Of a DNA stretch of 64,000 nt, positions 1-63,246 are shown piece by piece. The position numbers and the translations under genes were made by a program. The notes under the pieces were generated by a model that was given only the letters and a program-made list of their open reading frames with translations, was not told the DNA's origin and made no database searches. The stretch covers positions 96,001 through 160,000 of the forward strand of contig CAZNTG010000006.1 of the NCBI GenBank assembly GCA_964575955.1, read 5' to 3'. Source of the DNA: an uncultured Thermoproteaceae archaeon (GTDB lineage Archaea; Thermoproteota; Thermoprotei; Thermoproteales; Thermocladiaceae). The number at the start of each line of letters is the position of its first letter. Position 1 is the stretch's first letter.

Positions 1-393
1 ATCAACATAGCATAATGTAACGATATTGTAGTTAGATATCTTTAATGCATATTCTAGTGCTTTTATAAATTTTTCAAAGTTTATTATTACACAATCTCCA
101 TTAACTATAAGTATTGGTTTTCTAATTATCGTGTTAATACACATACACATGTCAATACAGTAGTCAACTCCTGACATGACTATTATATCTACATACTCAT
201 ATTTTCTCAATAATTCTATTAATCTTCTATGTCTTACAGATGTTAATACTACAATACTCTTGAATATATTTTTAAGTGTTTCAATTAAATATTCTATTAT
301 TGTTTTATCTCCTATCTTTAGTAGATGTTTTTCAGGATTTCTTAATCTACTTCCTGATCCTCCAGCCATTATTACTACAATATTCAATCCCAC
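1..393 (-). CDS. NTP transferase, CobY-like (adenosylcobinamide-phosphate guanylyltransferase); 3' end runs off the window
   Basis: Not in the ORF track. Hand translation from GTG at 393 gives MGLNIVVIMAGGSGSRLRNPEKHLLKIGDKTIIEY...ILIVNGDC, with the MAGGxGxR..EK nucleotidyltransferase motif. The start overlaps the upstream stop codon. Confidence 0.7.
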   Translation of the reverse strand, partial: MGLNIVVIMAGGSGSRLRNPEKHLLKIGDKTIIEYLIETLKNIFKSIVVLTSVRHRRLIELLRKYEYVDIIVMSGVDYCIDMCMCINTIIRKPILIVNGDCVIINFEKFIKALEYALKISNYNIVTLCYVD

Positions 394-2521: not shown

Positions 2522-3372
2522 TCTATCGGTTCTAATAATTTTTCTAGAGGTTTTATAATGTGTATGTTATGTTCATAATTTATTATCAATCTTCCTCTAC
2601 TTTCCATCAATACATCACCTATGAATATTGCAAACCTACCTTCAATCTTCCTACCTTTAAACTTTATTCCGCTAACTATCGAGTCTATGTAGAAGCTTGG
2701 TAATATTTCTTCAACTTTGCCTAAAATTATTATTCTACCACCAGACATTCTAGCTCCAGGGTATATGCCTGCATTTCCCATTATCAGGATATTTCCACCC
2801 TTCATACCATATCCAGCGAAGTCGTTTACATTACCTTCAATTATTATATCACCACTCTTCATACCATGACCTATGAATGATTCTGCATTTCCATGTATAA
2901 TTATTGTTCCACCTCTCATACCATGACCATACATCATCCCTATCAACTTACCTCCAACAAATGAGCCAGCATTACCGTAGACCTCTATCTTTCCATTCTT
3001 CATTAGTGAGCCTAGATAGTGATCTGCATCTCCATAGATTACTAATTCACCACCACGCATTCTATATCCTGCTAATGGGCCAACACTACCTCTAACTTCG
3101 ATTTTTCCAATACTCATTCTATATCCAACATATCTTAATCTTCTAGTTCCATCTCCTTCAAATATTATATCAATACCTTCTTTATCTTCCTCGATCCAAT
3201 ATTCAATATCAAATAATTCTTCAACTCCTGATTTTCTATTTCCAATCCATATCTGCAATTCTCTCAATACTTCTTTAATATCTCTATTGATAAATTTGTC
3301 TGGAATTATTTGTCTTACTTCAACAGGAACTTTAGGATCTTCTTTAAATTTAAATTTTATTACAATCTTCAT
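2518..3372 (-). CDS. fwdC: Formylmethanofuran dehydrogenase subunit C
   Basis: N-terminal VPVEV..IIPD, WIGNR..ELFDI, followed by repeated GxxMxGGxIxIxGNA beta-helix motifs. Confidence 0.9.
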   Translation of the reverse strand: MKIVIKFKFKEDPKVPVEVRQIIPDKFINRDIKEVLRELQIWIGNRKSGVEELFDIEYWIEEDKEGIDIIFEGDGTRRLRYVGYRMSIGKIEVRGSVGPLAGYRMRGGELVIYGDADHYLGSLMKNGKIEVYGNAGSFVGGKLIGMMYGHGMRGGTIIIHGNAESFIGHGMKSGDIIIEGNVNDFAGYGMKGGNILIMGNAGIYPGARMSGGRIIILGKVEEILPSFYIDSIVSGIKFKGRKIEGRFAIFIGDVLMESRGRLIINYEHNIHIIKPLEKLLEPIE

Positions 3373-4559
3373 TTTTCAAAAAATGTTGATATTCTTCTAA
3401 TAGCTTCTTCAATTCTTTCAGGACTCTCTTTTGCGAAACACATCCTTACATGATATCTACCTGCTGAACCAAATGCAGAACCGGGAACTACTGCTACATG
3501 TACTTCTTCTAGTAGTCTATTTACAAATACTTCATCATCAATGTTTATCTTTTTCATATAGTTTGATAGATCTACAAACATGAATAATCCAGCTCTAGCT
3601 TTTACAGTCTTAGCTTCAGGTAGATATTTTAATATTGCTTGATACATTCTATCTCTTCTCTCTCTATATATTGGAATCACTTCCTGTAAATATTTAGATT
3701 TGTATTTTGTTACAAATAGTTTTGCTGCATATTGTGCTGGTGTTGGTGGATTTAGATTTACATACTGTATAACTCTTCCTAACTCTTTAACTATACTTTC
3801 ATGAGCAACTACATATCCAAGTCTCCACCCTGGAAGTGCAGCACCTTTAGACATTGTGTTTAGTGCAATTACATTTTCAAGATCTCTTCTAACTATGTAA
3901 TTATGCTCACCCTCGTAGTATAGTTCTCTATATGCTTCATCGTAGATTATGTAGAATTTATAATCTATAGCAAGATCTAGAATAGTCTTCACAAGTTCTT
4001 CACTAGCTACCCTACCTGTTGGATTATCAGGATTTACAAATATTAACATCTTAGTTTTTCTTGAAACTGCATTTTTAACATCTTCAATATCTGGTTCATA
4101 GTTATTATTAACAGATACAGGAATATCAACAACTTTAGCTCCAAAATACTCGGCTAATGGTCTATATAGCAGATATTCTGGATTAAATATTACAACTTCA
4201 TCACCTTCATCTATAAGTAGCATATATATTGCAAGTATTGCCTCACTAGAACCTGTTGTAAGTATTATATTTTCAATACCAATACTAGACTTACTATCTC
4301 TAGAGTAGTCCTCAGCTATTGCCTGTCTAACATCCTCAAGACCCATAGATGGTGTATATCTACTAAAGTTGAATGAGTCTCTCAACATCAAATCCTTCAA
4401 CTCCTCTAACAGCTCTCTACTTGGAGGAAGACCAGGTTGACCAATATGTAGTTCATACACATCTATACCAGTCTTCTTCAATTTAGCAACTTCAGATACT
4501 AGAAGTCTAATTTTAGAGCCAGGAAGTATATTCGCTTTTCGTGATAATGTTAATGGCAC
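3369..4559 (-). CDS. Class I/II PLP-dependent aminotransferase
   Basis: HIGQP, TTGSSEA, NPDNPTG, YDEAY, SKGAALPGWRLGY, VPGSAFG. Confidence 0.92.
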   Translation of the reverse strand: MPLTLSRKANILPGSKIRLLVSEVAKLKKTGIDVYELHIGQPGLPPSRELLEELKDLMLRDSFNFSRYTPSMGLEDVRQAIAEDYSRDSKSSIGIENIILTTGSSEAILAIYMLLIDEGDEVVIFNPEYLLYRPLAEYFGAKVVDIPVSVNNNYEPDIEDVKNAVSRKTKMLIFVNPDNPTGRVASEELVKTILDLAIDYKFYIIYDEAYRELYYEGEHNYIVRRDLENVIALNTMSKGAALPGWRLGYVVAHESIVKELGRVIQYVNLNPPTPAQYAAKLFVTKYKSKYLQEVIPIYRERRDRMYQAILKYLPEAKTVKARAGLFMFVDLSNYMKKINIDDEVFVNRLLEEVHVAVVPGSAFGSAGRYHVRMCFAKESPERIEEAIRRISTFFEK

Positions 4560-4616
4560 ATATCTACATTTCTTAAAGAATTCATAAATATTCTCACCTA
4601 CATCTTGAATTAGGTT

Positions 4617-5153
4617 ATGAAGGTAGAAATAGATAATTATACTATAATCATCAAACCATTACTCATATATGCAGATAAGCTAGATAGAGTATGTATTGAA
4701 AATATATTAAAAAATATTAGAACAAAATATACACACATATTCATAAATCCACATAGAGTATTAGATCATAGACAAGTAATCTATAGCATAGTTCAAAGTA
4801 TTAAGAATAGAAGTATAGGTATTGAAATTGCAAGAAAGATAGAGCTAGACATACTTGGATATATATGTTGTACAGATCAAATTAAGAATATAGTTGAAAA
4901 ATGTATAGAAGATTATAATGGAAAACTACTACTAATATCATACTGCATGAATTGCAATGAAGAGGATCTATTAAGAGAACAATACAATATTCTAGACAAC
5001 ATATCTAAACTATGTGACACATCTATAGTAGACTTAGCTATATGTTTCTCATGTTATAAAATTGTGAAATTATCTGAATATTGTAATGATGTTAGTGATG
5101 TTATGGATTTTATGGAGAAGATTGTTGAGATGTTGTTAAGAAGAGTTGAATAG
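4617..5153 (+). CDS. KEOPS complex subunit Cgi121-like
   Basis: ARKIELDILGYICCTDQIKNI matches the Cgi121 ArxxxxEilxy..gtxQI.xA pattern. Confidence 0.55.
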   Translation: MKVEIDNYTIIIKPLLIYADKLDRVCIENILKNIRTKYTHIFINPHRVLDHRQVIYSIVQSIKNRSIGIEIARKIELDILGYICCTDQIKNIVEKCIEDYNGKLLLISYCMNCNEEDLLREQYNILDNISKLCDTSIVDLAICFSCYKIVKLSEYCNDVSDVMDFMEKIVEMLLRRVE

Positions 5154-5156
5154 TTT

Positions 5157-5720
5157 TTATGATAGTGATATTTTAAGTAGTGAGAATATGTCATCTTCTT
5201 TAATTACTGAGATACCTGTCTTTGAAGGAAACATGTCTATTAGAAGTATCTTATCTGGATTATCTAACTTAACTTTACGTTTTATTTGACGTGCTATGTA
5301 ATCTATAATCTCCATTCTATGATATTGAACACCTCTCTTTCTAACTTCAATACGATATGTTTCATCTTCTCTAATTTTCTCATGTGCAAGTTCTACAGCT
5401 TTCTCTTTAATTTTTTCAAGATCTGTAATAACAACTTCCTGAATTGGGACAACTTTCAGTATAAATCTTGGAACATACTGTTGAGATATTACCAAATCTT
5501 TCAATCTCTTACAAAACTCTACAGGATCGTACTCAACTTTAGCAGTTATTAAACCATCAAAACCTGTAAACCAAGTATCTGAAAGCTCTACACCTAACAG
5601 ATCACATACATATCTCAATTCTTGAATACATAAACCTTCTCTTCTCCTTCCTGTAGAGATTACTAGATTAAACATTGCTGTAAAAGCAGTAGAAGGATTT
5701 ATATACTTAAACACGTGCAA
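5157..5720 (-). CDS. THUMP domain-containing RNA-binding protein
   Basis: FNLVIST..RRE, ILKVVPI, ETYRIEVRKRG, KVKLDNPDKILLI. Confidence 0.88.
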   Translation of the reverse strand: MHVFKYINPSTAFTAMFNLVISTGRRREGLCIQELRYVCDLLGVELSDTWFTGFDGLITAKVEYDPVEFCKRLKDLVISQQYVPRFILKVVPIQEVVITDLEKIKEKAVELAHEKIREDETYRIEVRKRGVQYHRMEIIDYIARQIKRKVKLDNPDKILLIDMFPSKTGISVIKEDDIFSLLKISLS

Positions 5721-5865
5721 GAAATACTAAAATAGTGAATATATCTCAAATATGTACGTTAGGTACAGTAGATTTAGCCTGTATAGTCCAGATGTATCTA
5801 GTAATCCGAAACTTTCACAAATATATTTGGTAATGCTTTAAATCCTAGCAAATTCTTTCGTAATA

Positions 5866-5970
5866 ATGCCTATCCTCTCAGAAGTATATCTAATGGAAGA
5901 GGAGATATGGGAAGAGGAAGAAGAGGAGGAGTGGGAAGAGTTTGAAGAAGAGTGGGAAGAAGAGTTCTAA
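5866..5970 (+). CDS. Putative highly acidic micro-protein (34 aa, or 25 aa from ATG 5893)
   Basis: Hand translation MPILSEVYLMEEEIWEEEEEEEWEEFEEEWEEEF*; TTTAAA TATA-like box at 5837-5842; mixed GAA/GAG codons. Confidence 0.55.
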   Translation: MPILSEVYLMEEEIWEEEEEEEWEEFEEEWEEEF

Positions 5971-6003
5971 ATAGGTGAATAATCTAATAAAAAGTCAATT
6001 TTT

Positions 6004-6867
6004 CTATTCATATAGAAATCTAACTATGACTACAGGATGGTGAGGAAAAATCTTCATAACTTGACACCACTTAACTAGTGTGTAATCTATAGCACCAACA
6101 TATCTAGCAGTCTCAAGAACAGTCCTTACAGGACTTTTCAAGTATTTAGAAATTCTCCTAGCTATATAAAATATTCTGTAAGGTATTAGAGATCTATGAC
6201 CTCTAAAATATGTAATTGTTGGGCATTTTATAAAAAGTTTATAACTTTTAAAACATTTAGCTAATACATATGTCAATACTCCAAGATTAATACATCCAGG
6301 AACGTGTACAGGTCTTGAGACAAGTACAATATTAAACTTCTTGATAATTATAGATAAATCACTATCAACAACACATATAGATAATAGTCTACATCTATGA
6401 TAAATCTCATCAATAATCTTCTTAATAATAGCGTAGCTGTCTCTAGATGGATAGGTTACGTAGAAGTATGGTAGTAGAGATGTATCAACACCACATGTAG
6501 ATACGGGTTTTAATATTGATAATAAGTTTTTACTAATTGAAGAACATAGATGTAGATGTCTTGCTAAGTCTATATCTCTAACATTACATAGAGATTCGTA
6601 GATATATTCTCTAAATAATCTTCTAAATAATCTACACCATACATATTTAAATATCTTCACATTTAATAGATCTATCTTAGATATCTTAATTAGAGATTCA
6701 TCATATATGAAACCTAGTGATGTTAATAGAGCTTTCTCAGATATGAATATTATCGTGTTTTTATGTTCAAATTTTTTAGCTATTCTTAATAACTTTTTAA
6801 CAATTCTATATCTATCTCTTGTAGGTATCCAATATCTACTTCTAATTCTAAATATCTTCACCTTCAT
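6004..6867 (-). CDS. F420-0:gamma-glutamyl ligase-like protein (divergent CofE-like family)
   Basis: YWIP, IFISEKAL, LKPVS.CGVDTSLLPY.YV.YP, VVDSD, H.PVVIVR; last gene of the cofD-cofG operon. Confidence 0.65.
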   Translation of the reverse strand: MKVKIFRIRSRYWIPTRDRYRIVKKLLRIAKKFEHKNTIIFISEKALLTSLGFIYDESLIKISKIDLLNVKIFKYVWCRLFRRLFREYIYESLCNVRDIDLARHLHLCSSISKNLLSILKPVSTCGVDTSLLPYFYVTYPSRDSYAIIKKIIDEIYHRCRLLSICVVDSDLSIIIKKFNIVLVSRPVHVPGCINLGVLTYVLAKCFKSYKLFIKCPTITYFRGHRSLIPYRIFYIARRISKYLKSPVRTVLETARYVGAIDYTLVKWCQVMKIFPHHPVVIVRFLYE

Positions 6868-8035
6868 ACTTACGATCTACAAGACCATCTTCATCAACTA
6901 TGTTTAGAACTCTCTCACGTATTATATCTGAAAGCCATACTTTAGCATTTTTAATATATTTAGGATATATTGGTAATCTCTCTCTTAACATATATCCAAA
7001 ACTCTCAGTAACTTTTCTAATTTCACATATCTTCGGCCATCTATAGTCAATATTTATGTAGTCTGGAGTTATTGGAGATATTCCACCCCAATCATTAATA
7101 CCTGCTAGTATTAGAAGTCCAAAGCTTTCTGGATATAGATTTGGTGGTGATTGTATTGATGTTAAGTTTCTTACATATATCCTATATATCGATATTATTT
7201 TCATTATTTCATATATTGTAGGTCTTCTACAACATGTACATAGTCTCTCTGAAATACTACCTGGAGTGTATGGTTGTATTATTATTTCTTGAATATTATC
7301 AAAGTTTTCAAGAAGTTTTTTAGTCACTATTAATGTTCTAGCTCTATCTATAGAATCTTCACAAATACCTACCAATATTCCTGTTGTAGTTGCAATTCTC
7401 AGTCTATAGCAGTTGTATATAAATCTAAGCCTAATATGTGGCATTTTTGTACTTGATTCATAATGTGGCATACCTCTTCTATTCAATCTATATGATATAC
7501 ATTCAAGCATGAGACCTACACTTGCGACATATGGTTTTAAAAGTTTCAATTCTTCAAAACTTAGATAACCTATATTCAAGTGTGGAATAGCAAATTCAGT
7601 ATTTTTCAAAACCTTATCTAGAAATGTTATTACATACTCAATATAGTTTTTAAATCCCCACATCTTCAATCTATCTCTAACTTTTTCATATCTATCAGGT
7701 CTCTCTCCTGTACATACTAGAATTTCTTTAATTTTAAACTTCTTCTCCCACTTCTTAACTTTATGTACAATATCTTCAATATTCATAATATATGCTTCAG
7801 AACTTTCAGGATCTCTTCTAAAGTTACAATAGTAGCACTTGTTTGAACATATGTTTGTTAATGGTATGAAGACTTTTCTAGAGTATGTTATTATTTTTCC
7901 AAAATATCTATCTCTAATTTCACATGCTTTAGATATTAGTTGTAGAATATCTATGTAGTTACTATCTTCGAAAAGTTTAGCTATTTCAGACAACCCCGTA
8001 ATCTTCATCTCTTCAGTGCCCGTAGTTTTCATCAT
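6848..8035 (-). CDS. cofG: FO synthase subunit 1 (radical SAM)
   Basis: ITYSRKVFIPLTNICSNKCYYCNF, PHLNIG, ASVGLMLE, TTTGILVG, IQSPPNL, AGINDWGGISPITPDYIN, LRERLPIYP. Confidence 0.93.
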   Translation of the reverse strand: MMKTTGTEEMKITGLSEIAKLFEDSNYIDILQLISKACEIRDRYFGKIITYSRKVFIPLTNICSNKCYYCNFRRDPESSEAYIMNIEDIVHKVKKWEKKFKIKEILVCTGERPDRYEKVRDRLKMWGFKNYIEYVITFLDKVLKNTEFAIPHLNIGYLSFEELKLLKPYVASVGLMLECISYRLNRRGMPHYESSTKMPHIRLRFIYNCYRLRIATTTGILVGICEDSIDRARTLIVTKKLLENFDNIQEIIIQPYTPGSISERLCTCCRRPTIYEIMKIISIYRIYVRNLTSIQSPPNLYPESFGLLILAGINDWGGISPITPDYINIDYRWPKICEIRKVTESFGYMLRERLPIYPKYIKNAKVWLSDIIRERVLNIVDEDGLVDRKYEGEDI

Positions 8036-8961
8036 ATTTCATTTAGTATCTTCTCTGCTAGTCTTATACAGTCTTTCTTATCTTTCATAACTATATTATC
8101 AATAATGACGTTAATCTTTCTTTCATATGCATACTCTATAACATCTTTATCAGAGAAATCACAGACTATGTGTGTTATATTAAATTTTGAGTATAGTTCT
8201 AAAATACCTTTTGAAGATCCTTCATATCCTATAGCTTCCATGAGCTTGTCTGTTACTCCACTTATAGGTCTGTTACCAATCATTGGTAACACACATATCT
8301 TAGGCTTATTCAACTTCCTGATAATGTCACCTATAGGATTTGTATAGAGTATTGGTAGTATACTTACAGGTGGGCTACTTGGACCTATTATAACTATGTC
8401 AGATTTTTCTAAAAACTTTATAGCTTTAATACATGCATATGCATTTTCAATACCTTCAAATCTTATTGATATTGGTTTTAGACTTTTACAATATTTAACT
8501 ACAAACTCTTGAATATTTAATTCTCCAATTTCTGTAAGTATCATTGTTCTAACTCTACAATCTGTCATTGGTGATATGTTTGTAGGTATTCCCAATCTTG
8601 TACATACGTAATCACATATATTTGAAAGTTTATAACCTTTCTTAAGTAGGTATGTCCTAAGTATGTGCATTGCTAGATCTCTATCACCAATATTAAACCA
8701 AGTATCTTCAAGACCAAGTATCTTTGCCTGATTTAGAAAGTTGAATGTGTCTTCACGTATACCCCACATCTTGTCTAAGTCAAGCATTCCTGATAGTGCA
8801 TATATTACTGTGTCTAAGTCTGGAGATATGTAGAGACCATTCCACTCAAAATCATCTCCAGTATTCACAATTATGTATACATTATTGATACCCAACACCT
8901 CTACTAATCCAAGTAGAAGCTTTACGCCTCCTGTACCTCCTGTTAATAATGTCACTTTCAT
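8032..8961 (-). CDS. cofD: 2-phospho-L-lactate transferase
   Basis: LTGGTGG.KL, VNTGDD...GLYISPDLDTV.Y.L, WGI..DTF, WFNIGDRDLA.H, IGPS. Confidence 0.93.
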   Translation of the reverse strand: MKVTLLTGGTGGVKLLLGLVEVLGINNVYIIVNTGDDFEWNGLYISPDLDTVIYALSGMLDLDKMWGIREDTFNFLNQAKILGLEDTWFNIGDRDLAMHILRTYLLKKGYKLSNICDYVCTRLGIPTNISPMTDCRVRTMILTEIGELNIQEFVVKYCKSLKPISIRFEGIENAYACIKAIKFLEKSDIVIIGPSSPPVSILPILYTNPIGDIIRKLNKPKICVLPMIGNRPISGVTDKLMEAIGYEGSSKGILELYSKFNITHIVCDFSDKDVIEYAYERKINVIIDNIVMKDKKDCIRLAEKILNEI

Positions 8962-22286: not shown

Positions 22287-25200
22287 TTACCTTTGTGATG
22301 GTGGTCCTAGTACTGATACTAATCTCTTTCTTCTCCAGTGCTGGTACTCTATCAATCCAATCACTATTATGATTATCACAATGAAGATTATCACAATCCA
22401 TAGTGCTATCTGCTGCCATGATACATAGCCAACGCCTGGCCACCACCATCCAGTTACTGGGACCTTAACCTTTAGCTCGTATGTTGTTGGCTTTGATATT
22501 TCTATTGTGTAGGTCTTAGACTTTACATTTCCTGGTGCTGTTGCCATTGCTACACATGTTATTGGTGTTGTAGCTACATTCTTTGGTAGTGGTAGTATGA
22601 AGCTTAGCTTACCTTTACCATATCCTGTGTATATTACCTTACCTCCATATGTACAGTTTACACTTATGGATGCTATGTTTAGTGGACTGCCGCTTGCACT
22701 GACTGCTAATACCTTCACTTCAGCTCCTGGTATTGTTATTACTGGAGTTACTACTGATGATGGTGTCAGCTCGTAGGTCTCTTCATATCCTAGTGGTAGT
22801 CCATTCACACTTAGAACTTTCACAACTAGCTTTGTTGCACCTAGTGCTGCTACATGTACTGGACTTACTGTTACTGTTCCACTACTGCCTGTTGTTAATG
22901 TCCATGTTGCTGCCTTAACAGTGGTTAGTGACTTCATGTTTGGAACTATGTATGGTCCATATGTTGCATATGTTACTGCTGGTACATACTCTGTAACTTC
23001 TACCTTAGCTCCAGCTAGCGGTTCTGTCACTACTCCTGGAACTTGTAGTTGTACTGTTACTGGTATCTTTAGATATGCTGTACTGACCTTAACAGTTGTT
23101 ACAAATACTGGGTTTGTTGATCCTCTCTGTAGGCTTAGTGGATAGTTTAGTAGTACTGGTACTAGGTATGTCTTACCTCCTGATGTTATTGGTATGAATA
23201 CGTCTACTAGTAGGTTGCTTGCTGGTACTGAGCTTACACTACCTGCAAATGCTGTTCTTATATCTCTAATTACTGCTCCTCCAGTACTGTTTAGTATTGC
23301 TGATGCGTAGAAGTATTGTCCTCCAGTTGCTGCATCCTTTACAACTACTACAGCATTCTTCAGTGGTAATCCTGTCTTTGTCAATACTTGTAGTACTAGT
23401 GAGTATACCCATGTGTATACTAGGCTTACATTCTGCTGTGCATTACCTAGCTTCTGTACATCTTCCTGCTTAGCACTATCATATATTACTATTGGTACTG
23501 CATATGAGCTAAATGATGCTACTGGTGCATCTCCTCTTGGTCTACATACTGTGAATAGATATCTTACATAGCTGTCATACCAGAATATCATTACTCTAGC
23601 ACCATATGGTAGTACTGATAGTAGACTGCCGTTTGGTCCTATGAATGTTATTGCCATTGGATGACATAGGTCTCTCGATACGTTGTCAAATACTACCACT
23701 GTGGCATTTACTATTGGTTTACCATTCCATCCAAATACCTTGCTTAGGCCGTATATTGCTTCTGGTCCTAGGAATAGCTTACCTACAGGTACCCATCCAC
23801 CACTTACTGACATGACCTTAACCTTAACTCCTAGCTTGTTCACTCTAATTACTGCTGGTTCTCTATATACTGTAAATGCGTAGTATATGTCTGATCTTGT
23901 TGTCCAGTTAATAGCTATCTCATACTTCACTAGCTCGTCTGGTGTTACAACTATCTTCTTCATTGTTGGTGTGTAGAATGTGTAGCTTGGTGGCCAGTAC
24001 TTGTATGCTATCTTTGGCTCTGGTACATATTCTACAAACATCTTACTCTTGTATGTTAGGCATGGTACTGCATCAGCATTTACTAGGAATGTTGGTCCTA
24101 GTAGGTATGCTATTTCACCTGTCTTGTTAGTCTTGCTTGGTAGTACTAGTGGCTTTGTTGTTGACTTTACAACTATGTCAAATGTGTTGTTGTTGTAGAA
24201 TCTTATCAATGTTTCAGGTATTGAGTTTAGTGTTACTACACTTGGCATTACACCTACACTGAATAGTTTCTCATTCTTTGTTGCGTAGTTGTATATTAGT
24301 GTTGATGTTGCACCTGTTAATGGTCCTAGTGTTATTGCTTTACGCTCAACTACGTCAGCCTCACCTGTTAGTCCAACATATACCTTGCTTACGTTTACAT
24401 TCATTCTTGCAAAGTTTAATAGTGCGTATGTGCGTGGCTTAACTATTAGGTATGGTACTCCACTTACCTCAGACACATTAATGCCGAAGTACTCTCTTGA
24501 ACTGAATGGTCCACATGTCCAGTATCTACATACTACTACGCCACTGCTTGTTGGGAAGCATGTTATGTTACGTTCTACATATCTTGGAGTCTCGTTAATT
24601 ATGTATATTCTTGCTATATGAGCACCTCTCAATACGTTTGTTGTTATTGTCCACTCTGGTAGTGGTATTCTCACTACACCATTGTCAACATTTACTAGTA
24701 GTAGTAATGGACTTCCGAAGTAGTATCTCCATGCTGTGCCAGGTAGTAGCTTCTCTAGGTATAGTGATGTTGTCTCTACTGTTCCGTTTGGTAGTTGTAG
24801 TACACGTACTTCTGTCTCAGTAATGTTGAATGGTGTTCCACGCCATATTCCTGCAGTTATGTTCAATGTTCCGTATCCTGTACCGTTAACCCATATAATT
24901 ATCTTGACTCTCTTCTCAATATCGTAAATCTTACTATGATTTACAGGTACTAGCATTACTAATACTCTTGGTGTCTGTAGAATCTTCTCAACAGCCTTAG
25001 TGATGTTTACTGGTGATACTAGTACTACTCTCTTCAACTCACCTCCAGATGTGTATTCTGCTATCATTGATACTGTCAAGTTAGTTATCTCATATAGATC
25101 ACTTGCATTAACCATCAAGTATAGTGCTCCAATATCATACTTGAACACGTTTCTAATAATTAGCTTCTTCTTCTCAACCTTACTTAATGATAGTGATACT

Positions 25201-28200
25201 AGTGCACTAGTCTTCTTGTATATCATGTATGGTGCTTCTAACAACTCCGAGAGTGGTAATCCATATGGTATAGATCTTCTCAATGCCTTCGCTGATGCAA
25301 AGCTTGTTATGTTTAGTATAGTTGGCTTTCCATTAACGTAAACTACTAGATGTAGCATTCCGTAGTATAGTGTCATATTAATTCCTAGTGATCCGTTTGG
25401 TAGTAATTCTATTCCAGTATCTGGCATGTACTTTTCGTTTCCTGTTACTGCCATTAAGCTTGGTAGTATGTACGTTACATTTTCGTATGTCTCATTTTCG
25501 TACATTCCGATTATTGATGGAACTCCAACAATTGCATTTGTTGTGTTAAATCCGTTCACTATTGGTAACACGTTTACTAATGCCGTACCTGTATGTACTG
25601 TGAATGTCCTTGCTAGTGTATCTGCGAATAGTAGTCCTAGGAATACGTGTCTTAGTGTCTCATTGTCTCTCGTGTATAGCTTGAATGTTACTGGCTTTAC
25701 AGTGCTTACTATTACTATACTTCCAGGCTTTACTGTTACCTTCTTACCTGTCATTGTTGTTAGTGTTATTGGCTTAGTGACGTTTATTGTTGTGCCGTTT
25801 GGTAGTACTATGTAAGTCATGTTGTATGGTGGTATTGTTATTACATTGTCAAAGACCTTATAGCCTAGGTAGTATACCTGTGCTTCATATGTCTGTCCTG
25901 GTAGTATGACTCTCCACACGTTACCTGCTCCAAATATTGGTGATATGTAGAATAGTGCGTATGGTGTGCTTGATGATGCATTAGCTATTAATGCTGCTGC
26001 GACATAGTAGCTCATGTTTACCATGTAATCTTTTAACCATGCATCTTCTCCAGTCTCTTCATACTTCGTTAATGCAACCTCAGCATCATGTCTATAGCTC
26101 TTTGCAAGTTCTTCATACCTCTCCTTAGCCCAATTCATACCTATCATTCTGAAGTCTGCAAGTTTGACTAAGTTAGCCATACTTGATTTGCTATACACTG
26201 TACCGTTGATTACTAGAGTCAGGTTGTATAGTATTACTGGACATCTTAATGGTACTGAGCATGGATATACTGGTAGTGTGTTTAGTAGTACTAGCTTACC
26301 ACTGTCATTGTAGACTACGTATACTGGAACTTTTCTAATGTTTACTATTCTCAGTGCAATGTTCTTTCCAACTGTTGCCGGTACTGTTATCTTCGTAACA
26401 TTTGCCACTAGTCCAGCATCTAGTGATGCACGTGTACCTAATGTGTATACCCACTCTGTTGGTTTGTAGCCTAATATTAGTGATGCATATTCTGCATAGT
26501 TGTTGTGATATTCTGCTAAGGTTCTGTTTACATTTATATGTTCTATGAACCACTTCTTATCATCCTTTGGTATTATTGTTCTAACTACAACTATTACACT
26601 TCTATTAGCTGGTAGTGCACCGATATATGCTAAACCTTGATCATTTGTGATCGCTCTCCATAACTCTTCACCAGTCTTTGTACTGAATACCTGTATTACA
26701 AATCCTGGAAGTGGTACTCCACTGCTTGACTCAACCTTGAACCACTCATACACTATTGGGAATGCTATCTCTGTCCATGTTAATCCACGTAGTAGCTGTG
26801 TTATTGTTAACTTCACAGGCTTTCCTGTTGTTCTATTCACTGCATATAGTGTATATCCTGCATAGTTTAGTATGAATGTGTATGTTGCCTTTGTCTTCTC
26901 AACTGTTGGCCAACCTTCTTTGAATGTTACTGGTACTGGTATTAGTAGTTGCTGTACATAGCGTGCTGGTACTGTTGCAATTACCTCAGGTTTACCAGCG
27001 ACATATCTTACTACTGATACTGTTGCTGATACACCTGCAGGTAGTGCAGTTATTAATGGCTTACCGTATAGTGTTGTGAAGTATGTCATTACAGTTACGA
27101 ATGCTGATGCAACTAGTAGGTTAACTGCTGTTACCTTCTCTGCAGTTACTCCAGTTATCACAGGTACTGTTGATGTGTATGGGAATGCTTGACCTTCCCA
27201 ATATCCACCAACTGTGTAGAACTTGTTTGTTCTATTCCACATTGATGAGAAGTTTGGAATCTTACTCTTCTTATAGACATTCAACACCTTGTAACCACCT
27301 ACAGGCCATACCCATGCATTTACTGCTGTGACATTTGTACCTACTAATCTTGAGTATGATCCTACAGCAAACTCTCCAACACCTATAGTTATAGGTCCAT
27401 ACTTCACATAGACTGTGTAGTAGTAGTATGTCTCATTTGTTCTTGGACCGATAATGCGTACTGATGTTAGTGATGTAATGTTATACTCTACTGGTGCTGC
27501 AGTTACTAGGTATATTACAGGTGATAGCTGTAATGCACCTGCAATGTATGTTGGTCTTGCAGCTACTGCATCATCTAGATCACATGAGAATGTTACTGAT
27601 AGGTTTGCATATAGTGTTCCTGGTGCTGCAATGTACATTGACCTGTATATTAGTACTCTCATGTTTCTGTATAGTATTGGAGTTATTGATAGTTTAGGTG
27701 CTGCAGTTACGTTAATTCCAGGTACATATCTTCTAATTCTTATAACTACTGGTACTATGCTTGTCTTAAGTATTACATTACTGACTGGGAACTTTACTTC
27801 GGTCATTTTGAATATTGTCTTATTAACTAGCTTAGTTATGTCAAATCTAGCAACCATGTCATAGTGGTAGTATATCTCTACATAGAAGTGGTGAATCTCA
27901 AATGATGGACCTCTATATACGTACTTTGGTATGTATGACTCATTTATGTATATGTCGAAGTATCTTGTACCTACTAATGTTGCGTAGTTCTCAGGTCCTG
28001 TTGATATGAATATCCTCTTGCCTGTTGTAGTTACTTCATACCAGCGGTAGCTCAACATGTTGAATAGTTCTGTTGGTAGCTTTGTTCCAAGTAGTGATCT
28101 AAGCTTTGATGTGTCTAGTATGTATGTTGTTTTTGGAACATTTACAAATGCGTATGGTTGTAATCTATACTTTATGCCTACAGCTTTTGGATTATATGCG

Positions 28201-29570
28201 TAGCCGTATAGGCCAACTGCTAATACTGTGAAGTTCTTTAATGTTGTGAAGTTTGGTAATGCTATGACTCCAAAGTTTGTTAGTGAGTATGGCTTTGTAA
28301 TTACATCAAGAGTCTTCATGTATTCTCCAGTTAGCTTAGTCATGTAGTAGATCTCGATTCTGTAATATACAGAGCTGAATGGCTTCTGAACTTTAACAAC
28401 TAGAGCTCTAAAGTGCTTGAACTGTGGTGGTGGTAATATCTCTAAACCTTCGTATAGTGCAGTTGTGTAGTAGATTGGTCCAAATGTACACTTTCCAATC
28501 ATGTTTGTAACAGTCTCATTATACATCAACTCTGGATAGATTACCTGCTTTCCTGTTGGTAGGTACTGTGTTACTGTAATCTTGTAGTAGTTACAGTATG
28601 TCTTCGTGTCATTAACAACTATGAAGAATGCCTGTATGTATGGTAGCCAGAATGCCTTCTCAACCCAGAATGGGAACTCCTCAACACCAAGACCATAGTA
28701 GTTGTATGTGTATAGTAGCTTTCCTGTTGCTGATTCATATATATTAACTATCTGTGTTGCTGGCGATAGCTTATATGGTAGGTTTGGAGTTACGTTAAGT
28801 CTTAGATACTTTGTCTTTGGAATATATATGTATATGTCGTATTTTGCATTCTTTGCGACTATATATGGTGTTCCATTGATGTAGATGTTTGCAAGTATGT
28901 CATTTGTATCAAGCTTATCTAATATGTGGTAGTATGTTGTACTGTTGATTACTGGTAGACCCATCTTTCCAGTCTCAATTCTTGATAATATTCTGAGAAC
29001 TGATACTAGTGGCATTGGTATTGCCGTTGTGAAGTTTGCAGCTAACCACCATTTACCCCAAGCTTTTACTAGGATTATGATTTTCCAAAATGCTATTAAG
29101 TTAATTATAGATTGTGGTACCTTCACTACGAAGAGTACTCCACCAGTACTGTTTGCTTCTGCTGTTACTGTTATATTTATTGGTGTTGGATATATCTCAA
29201 AGTAGTGTGTTGTAGTTTCGTAGTATGGTGTTGATGCATTAACTATGATTAGCTTAAATTCTTTACCTGCTGTGAAGTAGTAAGGTGATGCATTGTATAG
29301 GAATAGTTTGTATATGTTCTTACCATATAGTGCCTCCCATACCTGTGTAGGTATGCCGTGTATTGGTGGTATTCCTACAGTAATCATTAGTGATGGTGTG
29401 CCTGTTACATTTATTCTTGCATCTGTCATGTTTAGACTTATGTTATATATTAGTAGTTTTTCTGGTGTTGCGTGGACTATTGTTGTTATTCCTACTAGTC
29501 CTAATATTGTTACTAGTACTGCTAGAGTTGTTATTATTGCGAGTCTGTTTAAGGTGTTACTTTTGGGCAT
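22287..29570 (-). CDS. Giant membrane-anchored surface glycoprotein, probable S-layer protein (2427 aa)
   Basis: Signal peptide (MPKSNTLNRLAIITTLAVLVTILG...VHA); T/V/Y/P-rich beta-type body with many N-x-S/T sequons; C-terminal TM followed by HWRRKR; strong codon bias. Confidence 0.8.
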   Translation of the reverse strand: MPKSNTLNRLAIITTLAVLVTILGLVGITTIVHATPEKLLIYNISLNMTDARINVTGTPSLMITVGIPPIHGIPTQVWEALYGKNIYKLFLYNASPYYFTAGKEFKLIIVNASTPYYETTTHYFEIYPTPINITVTAEANSTGGVLFVVKVPQSIINLIAFWKIIILVKAWGKWWLAANFTTAIPMPLVSVLRILSRIETGKMGLPVINSTTYYHILDKLDTNDILANIYINGTPYIVAKNAKYDIYIYIPKTKYLRLNVTPNLPYKLSPATQIVNIYESATGKLLYTYNYYGLGVEEFPFWVEKAFWLPYIQAFFIVVNDTKTYCNYYKITVTQYLPTGKQVIYPELMYNETVTNMIGKCTFGPIYYTTALYEGLEILPPPQFKHFRALVVKVQKPFSSVYYRIEIYYMTKLTGEYMKTLDVITKPYSLTNFGVIALPNFTTLKNFTVLAVGLYGYAYNPKAVGIKYRLQPYAFVNVPKTTYILDTSKLRSLLGTKLPTELFNMLSYRWYEVTTTGKRIFISTGPENYATLVGTRYFDIYINESYIPKYVYRGPSFEIHHFYVEIYYHYDMVARFDITKLVNKTIFKMTEVKFPVSNVILKTSIVPVVIRIRRYVPGINVTAAPKLSITPILYRNMRVLIYRSMYIAAPGTLYANLSVTFSCDLDDAVAARPTYIAGALQLSPVIYLVTAAPVEYNITSLTSVRIIGPRTNETYYYYTVYVKYGPITIGVGEFAVGSYSRLVGTNVTAVNAWVWPVGGYKVLNVYKKSKIPNFSSMWNRTNKFYTVGGYWEGQAFPYTSTVPVITGVTAEKVTAVNLLVASAFVTVMTYFTTLYGKPLITALPAGVSATVSVVRYVAGKPEVIATVPARYVQQLLIPVPVTFKEGWPTVEKTKATYTFILNYAGYTLYAVNRTTGKPVKLTITQLLRGLTWTEIAFPIVYEWFKVESSSGVPLPGFVIQVFSTKTGEELWRAITNDQGLAYIGALPANRSVIVVVRTIIPKDDKKWFIEHINVNRTLAEYHNNYAEYASLILGYKPTEWVYTLGTRASLDAGLVANVTKITVPATVGKNIALRIVNIRKVPVYVVYNDSGKLVLLNTLPVYPCSVPLRCPVILYNLTLVINGTVYSKSSMANLVKLADFRMIGMNWAKERYEELAKSYRHDAEVALTKYEETGEDAWLKDYMVNMSYYVAAALIANASSSTPYALFYISPIFGAGNVWRVILPGQTYEAQVYYLGYKVFDNVITIPPYNMTYIVLPNGTTINVTKPITLTTMTGKKVTVKPGSIVIVSTVKPVTFKLYTRDNETLRHVFLGLLFADTLARTFTVHTGTALVNVLPIVNGFNTTNAIVGVPSIIGMYENETYENVTYILPSLMAVTGNEKYMPDTGIELLPNGSLGINMTLYYGMLHLVVYVNGKPTILNITSFASAKALRRSIPYGLPLSELLEAPYMIYKKTSALVSLSLSKVEKKKLIIRNVFKYDIGALYLMVNASDLYEITNLTVSMIAEYTSGGELKRVVLVSPVNITKAVEKILQTPRVLVMLVPVNHSKIYDIEKRVKIIIWVNGTGYGTLNITAGIWRGTPFNITETEVRVLQLPNGTVETTSLYLEKLLPGTAWRYYFGSPLLLLVNVDNGVVRIPLPEWTITTNVLRGAHIARIYIINETPRYVERNITCFPTSSGVVVCRYWTCGPFSSREYFGINVSEVSGVPYLIVKPRTYALLNFARMNVNVSKVYVGLTGEADVVERKAITLGPLTGATSTLIYNYATKNEKLFSVGVMPSVVTLNSIPETLIRFYNNNTFDIVVKSTTKPLVLPSKTNKTGEIAYLLGPTFLVNADAVPCLTYKSKMFVEYVPEPKIAYKYWPPSYTFYTPTMKKIVVTPDELVKYEIAINWTTRSDIYYAFTVYREPAVIRVNKLGVKVKVMSVSGGWVPVGKLFLGPEAIYGLSKVFGWNGKPIVNATVVVFDNVSRDLCHPMAITFIGPNGSLLSVLPYGARVMIFWYDSYVRYLFTVCRPRGDAPVASFSSYAVPIVIYDSAKQEDVQKLGNAQQNVSLVYTWVYSLVLQVLTKTGLPLKNAVVVVKDAATGGQYFYASAILNSTGGAVIRDIRTAFAGSVSSVPASNLLVDVFIPITSGGKTYLVPVLLNYPLSLQRGSTNPVFVTTVKVSTAYLKIPVTVQLQVPGVVTEPLAGAKVEVTEYVPAVTYATYGPYIVPNMKSLTTVKAATWTLTTGSSGTVTVSPVHVAALGATKLVVKVLSVNGLPLGYEETYELTPSSVVTPVITIPGAEVKVLAVSASGSPLNIASISVNCTYGGKVIYTGYGKGKLSFILPLPKNVATTPITCVAMATAPGNVKSKTYTIEISKPTTYELKVKVPVTGWWWPGVGYVSWQQIALWIVIIFIVIIIIVIGLIEYQHWRRKRLVSVLGPPSQR

Positions 29571-48739: not shown

Positions 48740-49213
48740 ATGATAAAACAACTTATAAGTCAGGTCATCTTTGCTAGTTTCATGCGTGTACTTACCTGTA
48801 TCAAACTTTCATTTTCATCAGCGCATACATTAACTAAAGATCTTGGAACTCAAGCATGTTCAACTATCCATGGACATAACTATACTGTTGAACTATGTTT
48901 TACATCTGAAAATCCACTTCCATGGGTCTACGATTTCAAGAGATTGAAAGTTATTGCAAAGAAGGTTATTGATCAACTTGATCATAAACTTCTACTTCCT
49001 GAAAAGATATGTAGAAGTAGTAACGTATCTATCCCAGGTACTGACCCATCAATAATATGTCTACCTGTTGAAGAAGTTACAGCTGAAGAATTAGCACTCT
49101 ACATTGCTAAGGAAGTTACAAATGTAATAAATAATGAACAGATAAAAATATCTCTTGTAAAAGTTAGACTTTATGAATCAGATACAAGCTATGTTGAGGT
49201 TGAACTACTATGA
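48740..49213 (+). CDS. queD: 6-carboxy-5,6,7,8-tetrahydropterin synthase (PTPS family)
   Basis: FSSAH, CSTIHGHNY, DF..LK, LDH, TAEELA, LYES; true start probably near 48782. Confidence 0.82.
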   Translation: MIKQLISQVIFASFMRVLTCIKLSFSSAHTLTKDLGTQACSTIHGHNYTVELCFTSENPLPWVYDFKRLKVIAKKVIDQLDHKLLLPEKICRSSNVSIPGTDPSIICLPVEEVTAEELALYIAKEVTNVINNEQIKISLVKVRLYESDTSYVEVELL

Positions 49214-61169: not shown

Positions 61170-61210
61170 AATCTCCTTAATTACATTACAACCCCAAGCT
61201 GAGATGTGTT

Positions 61211-61289
61211 TGGTGCGGCCGCCGGGATTTGAACCCGGGTTCAGCGGCTCGGAAGGCCGCCATCCTAGACCAGGCTAGACTACGGCCGC
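61211..61289 (-). tRNA. tRNA-Gly(TCC), CCA encoded, no intron
   Basis: GCGGCCGTAGTCTAGCCTGGTCTAGGATGGCGGCCTTCCGAGCCGCTGAACCCGGGTTCAAATCCCGGCGGCCGCACCA folds as a cloverleaf. Confidence 0.96.
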
Positions 61290-61351
61290 CTTCATGCTAG
61301 TTATGTGTATAGATTTTTAAGAGTTTCTCTATTTCTTCTTATCGTATCTTC

Positions 61352-62722
61352 ATGTTACGTAATTTGAAGGCTGTATCTATAGTTTTAGAGAGAGGTAGAT
61401 GTAGTTGGGGTCGTTGTTATTTCTGTGGTTGGGGTAGGAGATTTGTAAATTCTAGTGTTGAAGAGTTGAAAGTTAGATTCTTAAAGTTTGTAGATAATGT
61501 TAATACTTCTGAATTTCCTGTTTTGAAAATATTTTGTTCAGGTAGTTTTTTAGATACAGATCAATTTCCTAGAGACTTTGTCTATTGGTGTATTGAGAAT
61601 GCAGAAAGGAGAGGTTTTAAGCATGTTGTAATTGAGTCAAGACCTGAATATGTAAGTGAGGAAATTTTAGAAGCCTTTACAAGTTATAGAGTGAAAATTC
61701 ACATAGCTATCGGTCTCGAATTAGCAGACGATAATATACTACTAAACTACTATAATAAAGGTTTTAAAGTTGAAAATTATATTAAAGCTGTTGAAAATAT
61801 TCATAAATATGGACATTACGTTAGAACTTACATACTCGTTAATGGTCATCCAATCCTCTACAACAATCCCATATATCACAAGCAGGTTTTTGAGAAAACT
61901 ATGAAACTTGTAGAAGAATATTCTGACAGTATTGTTATTATTAACGCATATCCTCACTCACTATCAAAATTATTTAAAGATTGGATAATTATGAGATGGA
62001 GACCTCTAAGTTATGAAGAATTTTTAAATATTGTAGATACATGGATTTACAGTGATAAAGTTGAGATAGATTTTAATAACTTTAATTTTATCCCAAGGTT
62101 TCCAAAAGATATGAAATTATTCATAAGGGGTGTAGGTTGTGATATATTAAAACATCCATATTTTGAGGTTTGGCAAGACTATATTCAAAGATTCTACATA
62201 CCACCTTCAGGGAAAGAGTATCTACTCTTCATACCGTGTACTTATAGAAAGCCATATTCGAAATCTAAGACACATAGAATATTACTAAGAGAGTTGTCTA
62301 AATATGAATGGTTTAAGAAAATTCATGTTGTTGTTGTTAGTACTCCAGGTGTGATACCATACGAATATCATACATATTATCCCTTTACACATTATGATTG
62401 GCCTGAATGGGAAGAGACTGAGGATGTTAAGAGGTGTTATATTGATATTACATATGATAGAGTTAAAAAGTTTCTCATGAGAGTTAGAAACTTCTATAAA
62501 CTATTCTTCACATATTTCCATTATGAATCTGAGACTCTTCAAGCGATACTTAAAGCATTTAGAGATTTAGGAATTGAGGATAGGCTAATAAATGTCCTAG
62601 ACCTGGATACCTACAGTAAGATTAAGAGTGAGATTGGTAAAGATAGGATTGGTAGTTCAATTATAAGACATCCATTAGCTATTAAGAAGTTGATAGATGT
62701 TCTAAGTAGGTATGTGACTTAG
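61352..62722 (+). CDS. Fusion of archaeosine radical SAM enzyme RaSEA and the ArcS catalytic (DUF5591-like) domain
   Basis: N-terminal GRCSWGRCYFCG, KIFCSGSFLD, ESRPEYV, AIGLE; C-terminal PCTYRKPYSKSKTH, an exact match to the ArcS motif PCx3KPYx2Sx2H, then STPGVIPYE..YP..HYD. Confidence 0.82.
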   Translation: MLRNLKAVSIVLERGRCSWGRCYFCGWGRRFVNSSVEELKVRFLKFVDNVNTSEFPVLKIFCSGSFLDTDQFPRDFVYWCIENAERRGFKHVVIESRPEYVSEEILEAFTSYRVKIHIAIGLELADDNILLNYYNKGFKVENYIKAVENIHKYGHYVRTYILVNGHPILYNNPIYHKQVFEKTMKLVEEYSDSIVIINAYPHSLSKLFKDWIIMRWRPLSYEEFLNIVDTWIYSDKVEIDFNNFNFIPRFPKDMKLFIRGVGCDILKHPYFEVWQDYIQRFYIPPSGKEYLLFIPCTYRKPYSKSKTHRILLRELSKYEWFKKIHVVVVSTPGVIPYEYHTYYPFTHYDWPEWEETEDVKRCYIDITYDRVKKFLMRVRNFYKLFFTYFHYESETLQAILKAFRDLGIEDRLINVLDLDTYSKIKSEIGKDRIGSSIIRHPLAIKKLIDVLSRYVT

Positions 62723-63087
62723 ATACTCATCTTCTCAATCCTATCTAATAATAAATCCTTCAACTTCTTAATTAAGTTAAAAGCCCTATTGTAAGGTGTA
62801 ACACCTTTCTCAAGATCTCTAATAATATCATCAATATCTGTAAGATATTCTAAAGTAATGTCATATTTAGCAAGTATATTACGAATTCTCTTAAGATCTA
62901 GAAGAGTCATATCATAATTTTGATAGAGATCATGTCTATAACATACATAGCTCAATATCGTTATAACATCTATAATATCAGAGACAAACTGCTTAAGCAA
63001 TATAATATCCTCACTCATCAAATAGCAACAATCAACAGGAACTAAAAACATCTCTCCAATAAAGATAGAAAGATTGAAATAAGACAA
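62719..63087 (-). CDS. Hypothetical protein
   Basis: ORF convergent with the fusion gene; start probably near 63051. Confidence 0.5.
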   Translation of the reverse strand: MSYFNLSIFIGEMFLVPVDCCYLMSEDIILLKQFVSDIIDVITILSYVCYRHDLYQNYDMTLLDLKRIRNILAKYDITLEYLTDIDDIIRDLEKGVTPYNRAFNLIKKLKDLLLDRIEKMSI

Positions 63088-63127
63088 ACTTTAAATACAC
63101 TACAAAACTTTAACTAAAACGAATATA

Positions 63128-63206
63128 GCGGCCGTAGTCTAGCCTGGTCTAGGATGGCGGCCTGCCGAGCCGCTGAACCCGGGTTCAAATCCCGGCGGCC
63201 GCACCA
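63128..63206 (+). tRNA. tRNA-Gly(GCC), CCA encoded, no intron
   Basis: Same body as the 61211-61289 tRNA, with anticodon loop CT-GCC-GA. Confidence 0.96.
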
Positions 63207-63246
63207 AAGAAATCCCTTAAAAGCTGTTTAACTTTGAAATCATCAT

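Follow-up and report, generated by a model that had tools for sequence, protein, structure and literature searches.

Archaeal tRNA characteristically carries archaeosine (G+) at position 15. To our knowledge, the last step of its synthesis is known only for Euryarchaeota, through the pair ArcS and RaSEA, and for crenarchaea in the form of two substitutes, QueF-like and GAT-QueC. Here we describe a gene lying in a window of 64,000 nucleotides (nt) from an uncultured Thermoproteaceae archaeon (contig CAZNTG010000006.1, positions 96,001 to 160,000), the whole stretch of DNA that was analyzed. It encodes a protein of 456 amino acids (aa) in which a short RaSEA-like radical S-adenosylmethionine (SAM) domain is followed by the catalytic C1 domain of ArcS. 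A previous reading of the window, made from its letters alone (the sequence-only reading), had proposed this fusion; we consider it probable that the protein is a single-chain minimal archaeosine synthase, which acts on preQ0-tRNA by a two-step lysine route. Our literature search found no description of a RaSEA-ArcS or radical-SAM-DUF5591 fusion; the original ArcS and RaSEA papers lay outside this search, so a prior description is possible.

One close counterpart is the ArcS-RaSEA complex of T. kodakarensis, in which, according to the accessible part of PMC11298593, the α subunit ArcS is a lysine transferase that transfers lysine to preQ0-15, and the β subunit RaSEA is a radical-SAM preQ0-Lys lyase that turns preQ0-Lys into G+. 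The same part of that paper reports free ArcS as inactive, with lysine transfer carried out only by the ArcS-RaSEA complex. The fusion contains the same two catalytic modules, and both systems share the physical coupling of these modules and a context of preQ0 genes and arcTGT. The complex consists of two proteins (profiles of 575 and 313 positions), whereas the fusion is one 456-aa chain. A second relative is the group of C1-only or ArcS2 proteins of phages, archaeal viruses and “some archaea” (PMC10516641, as far as its available text goes), which have the same C1 core and motif. Unlike ArcS2, the C1 domain of the fusion is joined covalently to a radical-SAM domain, in a genome that has arcTGT and in which no DpdA-type DNA transglycosylase was found; the sole TGT-family match of this genome is an equivalog-level TgtA, which places the protein outside the ArcS2 proteins that accompany DpdA. 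The crenarchaeal QueF-like and GAT-QueC proteins (described in the part of PMC5485725 at hand) have the same predicted job and occupy the same slot in sister genera, but their folds are unrelated to the fusion and their chemistry differs, with a thioimide plus ammonium in the former and glutamine amidotransfer in the latter.

The gene is one ATG-started open reading frame (ORF) of 456 codons that is free of internal stops (Table 1). Both family signatures fall on the one chain, matched by Pfam and by NCBIfam. The Pfam scan revealed Radical_SAM on residues 17~164 (34.5 bits, cut-off 29.5) and DUF5591 (PF17884) on residues 274~357 (59.8 bits, gathering threshold 26), which makes the C-terminal half a member of the latter family; no TGT (PF01702) or PUA match was found in the protein at E≤1. 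Its top NCBIfam family is TIGR01210, that of RaSEA (E = 5.5e-33, 114.5 bits), with residues 6~194 aligned to profile positions 14~205 of 313. The translation holds the radical-SAM motifs C17-x4-C22-x2-C25, K59IFCSGSFLD68, E95SRPE99 and A119IGLE123, followed by the C1 signature P295-C-TYR-KPY-SK-S-KT-H308, an exact copy of the motif PC-x3-KPY-x2-S-x2-H as defined in the accessible text of PMC10516641. The sequence-only reading had named these radical-SAM motifs, the exact ArcS motif and the lack of TGT-like and PUA domains, and all of them were recovered here.

The match to ArcS extends well beyond the Pfam hit. We collected 30 long ArcS sequences from a HMMER search with the C1 domain as a canonical alignment, and hhalign aligned the profile of the fusion with it at a probability of 99.8% (E = 1.9e-29), columns 249~451 of the fusion facing columns 266~448 of 615 in ArcS. 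This range shows that the C-terminal half is the whole C1 domain, ending where C1 ends in ArcS, before C2 and PUA, so that the assignment of this half to ArcS by the sequence-only reading holds over its entire length. Compared to ArcS and RaSEA, the fusion thus lacks the TGT-like N-terminal domain, in whose place the radical-SAM domain stands, as well as C2 and PUA, and its RaSEA part ends at profile position 205 of 313. The calculated isoelectric point is 9.26 for the C-terminal half and 7.05 for the N-terminal half; the basic C-terminal half would suit RNA binding.

Table 1. Coordinates in the window of the fusion gene, its domains and motifs, and related features.
Feature	Position	Strand	Description or basis
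Whole ORF	61352..62722	+	single-chain fusion: RaSEA-like domain and ArcS C1 domain
RaSEA-like short radical-SAM domain, residues 1-246	61352..62089	+	TIGR01210, 6p78 profile and fold matches
C-x4-C-x2-C, residues 17-25, predicted [4Fe-4S] ligands of radical-SAM	61400..61426	+	sequence; 54/55 aligned homologues
Complete ArcS C1 (DUF5591) domain, residues 249-456	62096..62719	+	Pfam, hhalign, 2q07 fold match
ArcS C1 signature PCTYRKPYSKSKTH, residues 295-308	62234..62275	+	exact PC-x3-KPY-x2-S-x2-H
QueD candidate (PTPS family)	48740..49213	+	PTPS 84.6 bits; single PTPS match of the genome
tRNA-Gly(UCC)	61211-61289	-	one arm of 87-nt inverted repeat
tRNA-Gly(GCC)	63128-63206	+	other arm of inverted repeat

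Homologues of the fusion protein form 117 clusters of 250~798 aa with 35~71% identity to it, of which we aligned 55 picked to span the identity range (37~70%). The three cysteines C17, C22 and C25 are kept in 54 of the 55 sequences, the remaining row having a gap, and S63, G64, D68, E95, G121 and E123 are kept in all. In the C1 domain, C296, K300, P301, Y302 and S305 are present in 55/55 and P295 in 53/55. The final residue of the signature, H308, is kept in 45 sequences and replaced by tryptophan in the other 10; source names are recorded for five of these, namely Culexarchaeum, Methanomethylicia and Asgardarchaeia.

An AlphaFold2 model built on this alignment has a mean predicted local distance difference test score (pLDDT) of 95.7 and a predicted template modeling score (pTM) of 0.90, with 429 of 456 residues at or above 90; the pLDDT dips only at residues 241~250 (82) and 431~440 (79). 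The model indicates two domains in a fixed mutual arrangement with a short linker in between. A fold search using VIA-align against 48,161 PDB representatives revealed that residues 1~246 of the model adopt the radical-SAM partial-barrel fold and most resemble the queuine lyase QueL (PDB 6p78), with a Z-score of 20.0 and a root-mean-square deviation (RMSD) of 3.1 Å over 216 of 230 residues. Generic radical-SAM cores follow at Z-scores of 18~14, including viperin (18.2) and BioB (17.5). The relationship to QueL is also seen at the sequence level, where the homologue profile matched 6p78 with E = 3.4e-15 (profile positions 3~210 against residues 35~233 of the 251-residue chain), and phmmer with the fusion protein gave E = 6.4e-6; the same profile also matches the radical-SAM part of Elp3. 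Like the N-terminal half of the fusion, QueL is short and has the C-x4-C-x2-C spacing, and it acts on a 7-deazaguanine substrate, as proposed for the fusion; it differs in being a stand-alone bacterial salvage enzyme of 17% identity, whereas the best NCBIfam family of the window protein is RaSEA. No RaSEA structure was found among the PDB matches of the fusion protein. The C-terminal domain (residues 272~456 of the model) matched PDB 2q07, with a Z-score of 15.2 and an RMSD of 2.1 Å over 137 aligned residues. This entry is AF0587 of A. fulgidus, deposited as an uncharacterized protein, and its sequence carries the C1 motif.

In the reaction sequence that we propose, FolE, QueD, QueE and QueC would supply preQ0, and arcTGT (TgtA) would exchange G15 of the tRNA for it. 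Lysine would then be attached by the C-terminal C1 domain, its ε-amino group reacting with the preQ0 nitrile to form preQ0-Lys15. In the N-terminal half, the radical-SAM domain, with a putative [4Fe-4S] cluster on C17, C22 and C25, would convert SAM to the 5'-deoxyadenosyl radical, and this radical would cleave the C–N bond of the lysine moiety to leave the formamidine of G+. The fusion would in this way have the obligatory ArcS-RaSEA contact built into one polypeptide. That the protein acts on preQ0-tRNA, follows the lysine route and cleaves by a radical, and that this organism makes G+, is our inference. The minimal substrate of ArcS is the preQ0 nucleoside, with a 5'-phosphate needed for efficiency and the free base unused (PMC11298593, within the accessible text), and the lack of a PUA or TGT-like tRNA-binding module in the fusion fits this requirement.

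The remaining steps of the pathway were searched for in the genome of origin, which is 1.52 Mb long in 15 contigs and estimated as 94.69% complete with 0.53% contamination. The TGT family has a single match, a 548-aa ORF on contig C13 that scores 513.7 bits against TIGR00432 TgtA (cut-off 350) and is therefore arcTGT; a second, DpdA-like copy was not found in this genome. FolE lies ~7 kb from arcTGT. QueC is a stand-alone 248-aa ORF, besides two weak matches limited to the first 60~70 profile positions, and it adjoins a QueE candidate whose best families are all QueE types, below their cut-offs. The queD named by the sequence-only reading belongs to the PTPS family and is the only such gene of the genome; it scores 66.9 bits against the QueD model TIGR03367, short of the cut-off of 89.25. 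For the other synthases, the searches of this genome yielded neither a separate ArcS or RaSEA of the canonical kind nor a QueF-like protein or an N-terminally extended QueC (GAT-QueC), and they gave no match to QueF or GCHY-1. Outside the fusion gene, DUF5591 has only a weak C1-like match inside the arcTGT ORF (35.1 bits), and TIGR01210 only a partial match of 34.6 bits in a 511-aa ORF, taken for Elp3 from its size and sequence. The precursor genes and arcTGT are thus present, in agreement with the sequence-only reading, and with no other synthase found the fusion is the only candidate found for the last step.

A comparison across the order took in 41 genomes from eight genera (g1 to g8), with the genome of origin among them, in g1. 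The fused gene was found at full length in four of the six congeners (57~61% identity), in two pieces on two contigs in the fifth, and not in the sixth (G004, 88% complete). Other genera of the same family and a second family, f2, gave only weak matches to the fusion; those in g5 (E = 4e-6 to 7e-4) lie in frames of mostly 542~573 aa, about the size of the arcTGT ORF described above. Split genes were found in both genomes of g7, and the remaining genera have no such module. QueF-like frames, counted as those of 110~141 aa over the cut-off, are present in g4 (4/4), g5 (6/7), g6 (9/9) and g8 (5/5) and absent from g1 (0/7), g2 (0/6), g3 (0/1) and g7 (0/2). QueC measures ~490~540 aa in g2, g4 and g8; mostly 506~520 aa in g5 (404 and 426 aa in two genomes), next to a short frame of 230~243 aa; 271~355 aa, the short form, in g6; and 206~272 aa in g1. 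The ArcS model for Thermoproteota, NF053620, reached its cut-off in 0/41 genomes. Nearly every lineage therefore has some candidate synthase, and in g1 and g7 the C1/radical-SAM module occupies that slot. Three congeners (G001, G003 and G006) have a longer second QueC frame with an extension at the N-terminus: that of G006 (438 aa) combines QueC at 157 bits with a sub-threshold GATase_6 match (22.0 bits, cut-off 27), that of G001 (482 aa) has QueC at 116 bits and no GAT match, and that of G003 (446 aa) is known from its frame length only. In g7, no QueC was found at E≤1e-10, which suggests salvage of preQ0. As a separate observation, the QueC match in g3 comes in two pieces within a 959-aa frame of an unusual architecture (G008:C3:46533-48524).

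The two g7 genomes, G026 and G028, encode the halves as separate adjacent genes with the same minimal modules and motifs, at 37% (C1) and 33% (radical SAM) identity to the window protein. In G028, the one examined, a C1-only gene of 227 aa, its motif intact, and a radical-SAM gene of 252 aa with C-x4-C-x2-C share 20 nt (L020 3171-4593). The C1 gene comes first in this overlapping pair, whereas the radical-SAM domain comes first in the window protein.

The existence of split genes in a related genus, together with the metagenome-type origin of the source assembly in its 15 contigs, raises the question whether the single ORF could be an artefact, in which an assembly or sequencing error joined two neighboring genes. 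We regard this as extremely improbable. A separately assembled contig of 1897 nt (run X1) spans 61260-63156 in the same frame, with no gap and one substitution, a G>A at 61793 that translates to E148K; this run is not counted as independent because it is possibly the source sample. In low-depth pieces of a second study (X2), a 227-nt piece (62004-62230) crosses the domain junction gap-free. The homologues argue more strongly against an artefact: precomputed annotation places both Pfam domains in 103 of the 117 clusters. Moreover, when one genome of each prokaryotic species was scanned, 178 stretches with a relative were found; in 77 of the best 80, the match begins no later than residue 15 and runs at least to residue 408, while the other three (L036, L037 and L087) are cut by contig ends. 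In addition, read-through of the split genes, which run C1 first, could not yield the radical SAM-then-C1 order, and the AlphaFold2 model packs both domains together with its pTM of 0.90.

The same 80 loci bear on the question of the substrate. An arcTGT-like gene lies within 4 kb of the fusion in 13 of them, and in two of these it follows the fusion immediately on the same strand; it is the only recurrent neighbor linked to the pathway; no statistic is given for this neighborhood because the related genomes are not independent. The other recurrent neighbors (M24 peptidase, Toprim, RrnaAD and DUF655), each in at most 13 of the 80 loci, are unrelated housekeeping genes. If the protein acted on a different substrate (DNA, a free preQ0 nucleotide or another RNA) or made a different 7-deazaguanine product, G+ would be absent from the lineage or made otherwise. 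This would agree with the lack of PUA or any other recognizable tRNA-binding domain, with queuine lyase, active on a free nucleotide, as the nearest fold of the N-terminal half, with the extended QueC of the three congeners, and with the C1-only proteins that act on DNA in viruses (PMC10516641, in the portion available). Against it stand the single TGT-family gene, at equivalog level a tRNA-G15 transglycosylase with no DpdA-like copy found beside it, the recurrence of arcTGT near the fusion, and the finding of no alternative archaeosine synthase in the genome of origin. On balance we judge a different substrate or product to be quite unlikely.

The fusion is widespread, with relatives in the 178 species genomes of the scan. 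With this result, the computational checks suggested in the sequence-only reading have all turned out in favor of that reading. Among the best 80, the nearest carriers (57~61% identity) are metagenome-assembled genomes (MAGs) labelled Thermoproteota, Thermoproteales or Thermoproteaceae. Further named carriers include Thermodiscus, Thermofilaceae, a “Kor1” Thermoproteota MAG, Culexmicrobium, Methanomethylicia and Asgardarchaeum, as well as the DPANN groups Micr-, Aenigmat-, Alti-, Iain-, Woese-, Nanohalo- and Nanoarchaeota, and one cultured organism, Ignicoccus pacificus DSM 13166 (L092 3914-5371, 39% identity). In public records the homologues are called “DUF5591 domain-containing”, “radical SAM” or “hypothetical”, with one JGI record named “archaeosine synthase alpha-subunit”.

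The modules also occur in other arrangements. A HMMER search with residues 250~456 returned 526 proteins at E≤1e-3, and the Pfam scan of 19 examples picked among the best 150 revealed radical SAM-then-DUF5591 proteins of 424, 488 and 635 aa, stand-alone C1 proteins of 188~290 aa, canonical ArcS with PUA, and a reverse fusion, P0142 (680 aa), in which DUF5591 precedes a radical-SAM domain whose RaSEA match is near full length (positions 15~298 of 313). Another of the scanned proteins, P0253 (369 aa), is a fusion in which DUF5591 follows an S-adenosylmethionine decarboxylase domain. In its short stand-alone form, the radical-SAM partner is a family of its own, with 95 clusters of 156~268 aa (most 228~268 aa) that are mostly named “hypothetical protein” and whose labels include Nitrososphaerales, Crenarchaeota, Helarchaeota and Hodarchaeota. 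No longer fused form was found among proteins of 799~2280 aa, which is weak evidence.

Two trees were built using FastTree. In that of 72 fused proteins plus the window protein, which is unrooted and comes from a quick method, two sets separate with a support of 99 each: a TACK/Asgard-type set of 23 that includes the window protein, and a DPANN-type set of 50 that includes the Ignicoccus and Desulfurococcales sequences. The second tree, of 154 C1 domains, unites the long canonical ArcS proteins in one clade (support 98), apart from the fused forms, which fall together with short stand-alone ones (support 85). Its basal split is weak (69), and so no conclusion can be drawn on which form is older. 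Tentatively, we propose that the minimal module, a C1 domain plus a short RaSEA-like core that is fused in either order or split, might be the main archaeosine synthase outside Euryarchaeota (DPANN, Asgard, Korarchaeia-type, Methanomethylicia/Culexarchaeia and part of Thermoproteota). It may even be the older form, having no tRNA-binding domain of its own and perhaps taking preQ0-tRNA directly from arcTGT, in which case the long ArcS could have arisen later by elaboration of an arcTGT-like scaffold.

The cultured carrier I. pacificus (CP006868) has additional genes of this type. Besides the fused gene and arcTGT, it encodes a stand-alone DUF5591 protein of 267 aa whose motif ends in tyrosine instead of histidine (L102 292-1095), and a 287-aa TGT/DpdA-like ORF (L103 652-1515) that scores 44.3 bits with TgtA and 21.1 bits with DpdA. 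No canonical RaSEA was found in this organism. These two ORFs may belong to a second 7-deazaguanine system, for example a DNA-directed one. The accessible parts of PMC8204110 and PMC7668247 contain no report of G+ in Ignicoccus.

The assignment of the window protein as a two-step archaeosine synthase rests on halves that are each identified by sequence, profile and fold, on catalytic motifs that appear near-invariant in the 55 aligned homologues, and on the recurrence of the halves fused in either order or adjacent. Physical association with ArcS, a trait of RaSEA, is seen in the shared chain, in the gene overlap of G028 and in the reverse fusion P0142. Several findings weigh against this assignment. 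The TIGR01210 score of 114.5 is about half the equivalog cut-off of 212.15, and the radical-SAM half has no counterpart of RaSEA profile positions 206~313; the ArcS models NF053620 and NF040592 give 57.9 and 57.3 bits on residues 250/272~357, with cut-offs of 600 and 440. By the NCBI definition the fusion is thus a member of neither the RaSEA nor the ArcS equivalog family, and the identification of the N-terminal half as RaSEA by the sequence-only reading stands for a RaSEA-like domain with TIGR01210 as its best family, not for an equivalog. Moreover, the nearest solved fold of this half is a different 7-deazaguanine enzyme, queuine lyase, with generic radical-SAM cores just 2~3 Z units below it. 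The distribution relative to other synthases is not strictly inverse, as the three congeners carry both the fusion and an extended QueC; the genome of origin is 5% incomplete; I. pacificus has its second, stand-alone DUF5591 protein; and no G+ measurement was found for any carrier of the fusion.

A further difficulty is that C1 domains are reported to yield G+ without RaSEA. ArcS of M. jannaschii does so using NH4+, Asn or Gln (cited in PMC11298593, in its accessible part), and the C1-only ArcS2 of Vibrio phage nt-1 gives dG+ in E. coli, which is RaSEA-free (PMC10516641, within the text available). The lysine route is thus not the sole chemistry open to C1, and the domain might make G+ by amidating preQ0-tRNA directly, with either ammonium or glutamine, the radical-SAM domain serving as a structural partner or doing another job such as repair, salvage or further modification. 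The absence of a third of the RaSEA profile from the radical-SAM half would be in line with this. However, 54~55 of the 55 homologues retain the cysteines of the cluster as well as the motifs of the SAM-binding type, and fusion in both orders, together with adjacency when split, argues for coupled chemistry. The phage yields are also low, at 4~7 dG+ compared with 926~1607 dPreQ0 per million nucleotides in the accessible data of PMC10516641. Direct amidation is accordingly an unlikely explanation, and the two-step lysine route remains the reading that we prefer.

The fusion extends a known chemistry and is not a new kind of system. Its fused and split forms are candidates for the last step of archaeosine synthesis in many lineages, including DPANN, Asgard, Thermoproteota groups and Ignicoccus pacificus. 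If the protein is active as proposed, archaeosine synthesis could do without three domains of ArcS (TGT-like, C2 and PUA) and without the C-terminal third of RaSEA, and the 55-kDa chain would offer a compact object for structural work on lysine transfer and radical cleavage. Annotation would gain as well, the genes being now listed as “DUF5591 domain-containing”, “radical SAM” or “hypothetical”.

Two tRNA-Gly genes flank the fusion gene, as noted in the sequence-only reading, and both read A14-G15 in the Rfam alignment. G15 is, as far as we know, near-universal in archaeal tRNAs, and a tRNA-Gly adjoins the fusion in just two of four congener loci and in none of the two split-gene loci; adjacency to tRNA genes was rejected as functional evidence, and the observation stands with no weight for the function. 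The two tRNA-Gly genes are identical except for anticodon base 34 (UCC or GCC) and lie in an inverted repeat of 87 nt with 97% complementarity (61203-61289 and 63128-63214). Between the repeats lies a segment of 1.8 kb with the fusion gene and a small ORF, and recombination could invert it; the contig of run X1, a Logan contig, ends inside both tRNAs, and a short-word assembly of this kind cannot fix the orientation of the segment. In two congener loci, tRNA-Gly(GCC) instead of the UCC gene lies upstream of the fusion gene.

The small ORF lies convergently, directly downstream of the fusion gene (62722-63018, minus strand), and comprises 99 aa from its second methionine in a 122-aa frame. It matched no Pfam or NCBIfam family, and it is found beside the fusion in two congeners at 75~78% identity, compared to 60% for the fusion gene. 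Elsewhere in the window, a 2427-aa ORF (22290-29570, minus strand) has no Pfam match at E≤1e-5 and a sub-threshold CarboxypepD_reg match (19 bits), and may encode a giant surface protein. The first part of the window (387-8961) carries a C1-carrier/F420 cluster, notable for a small genome of the Thermoproteota type, with genes for a pterin-binding protein, methenyl-H4MPT cyclohydrolase (MCH, 1592-2521), CofG (6851-8035) and CofD (8035-8961).

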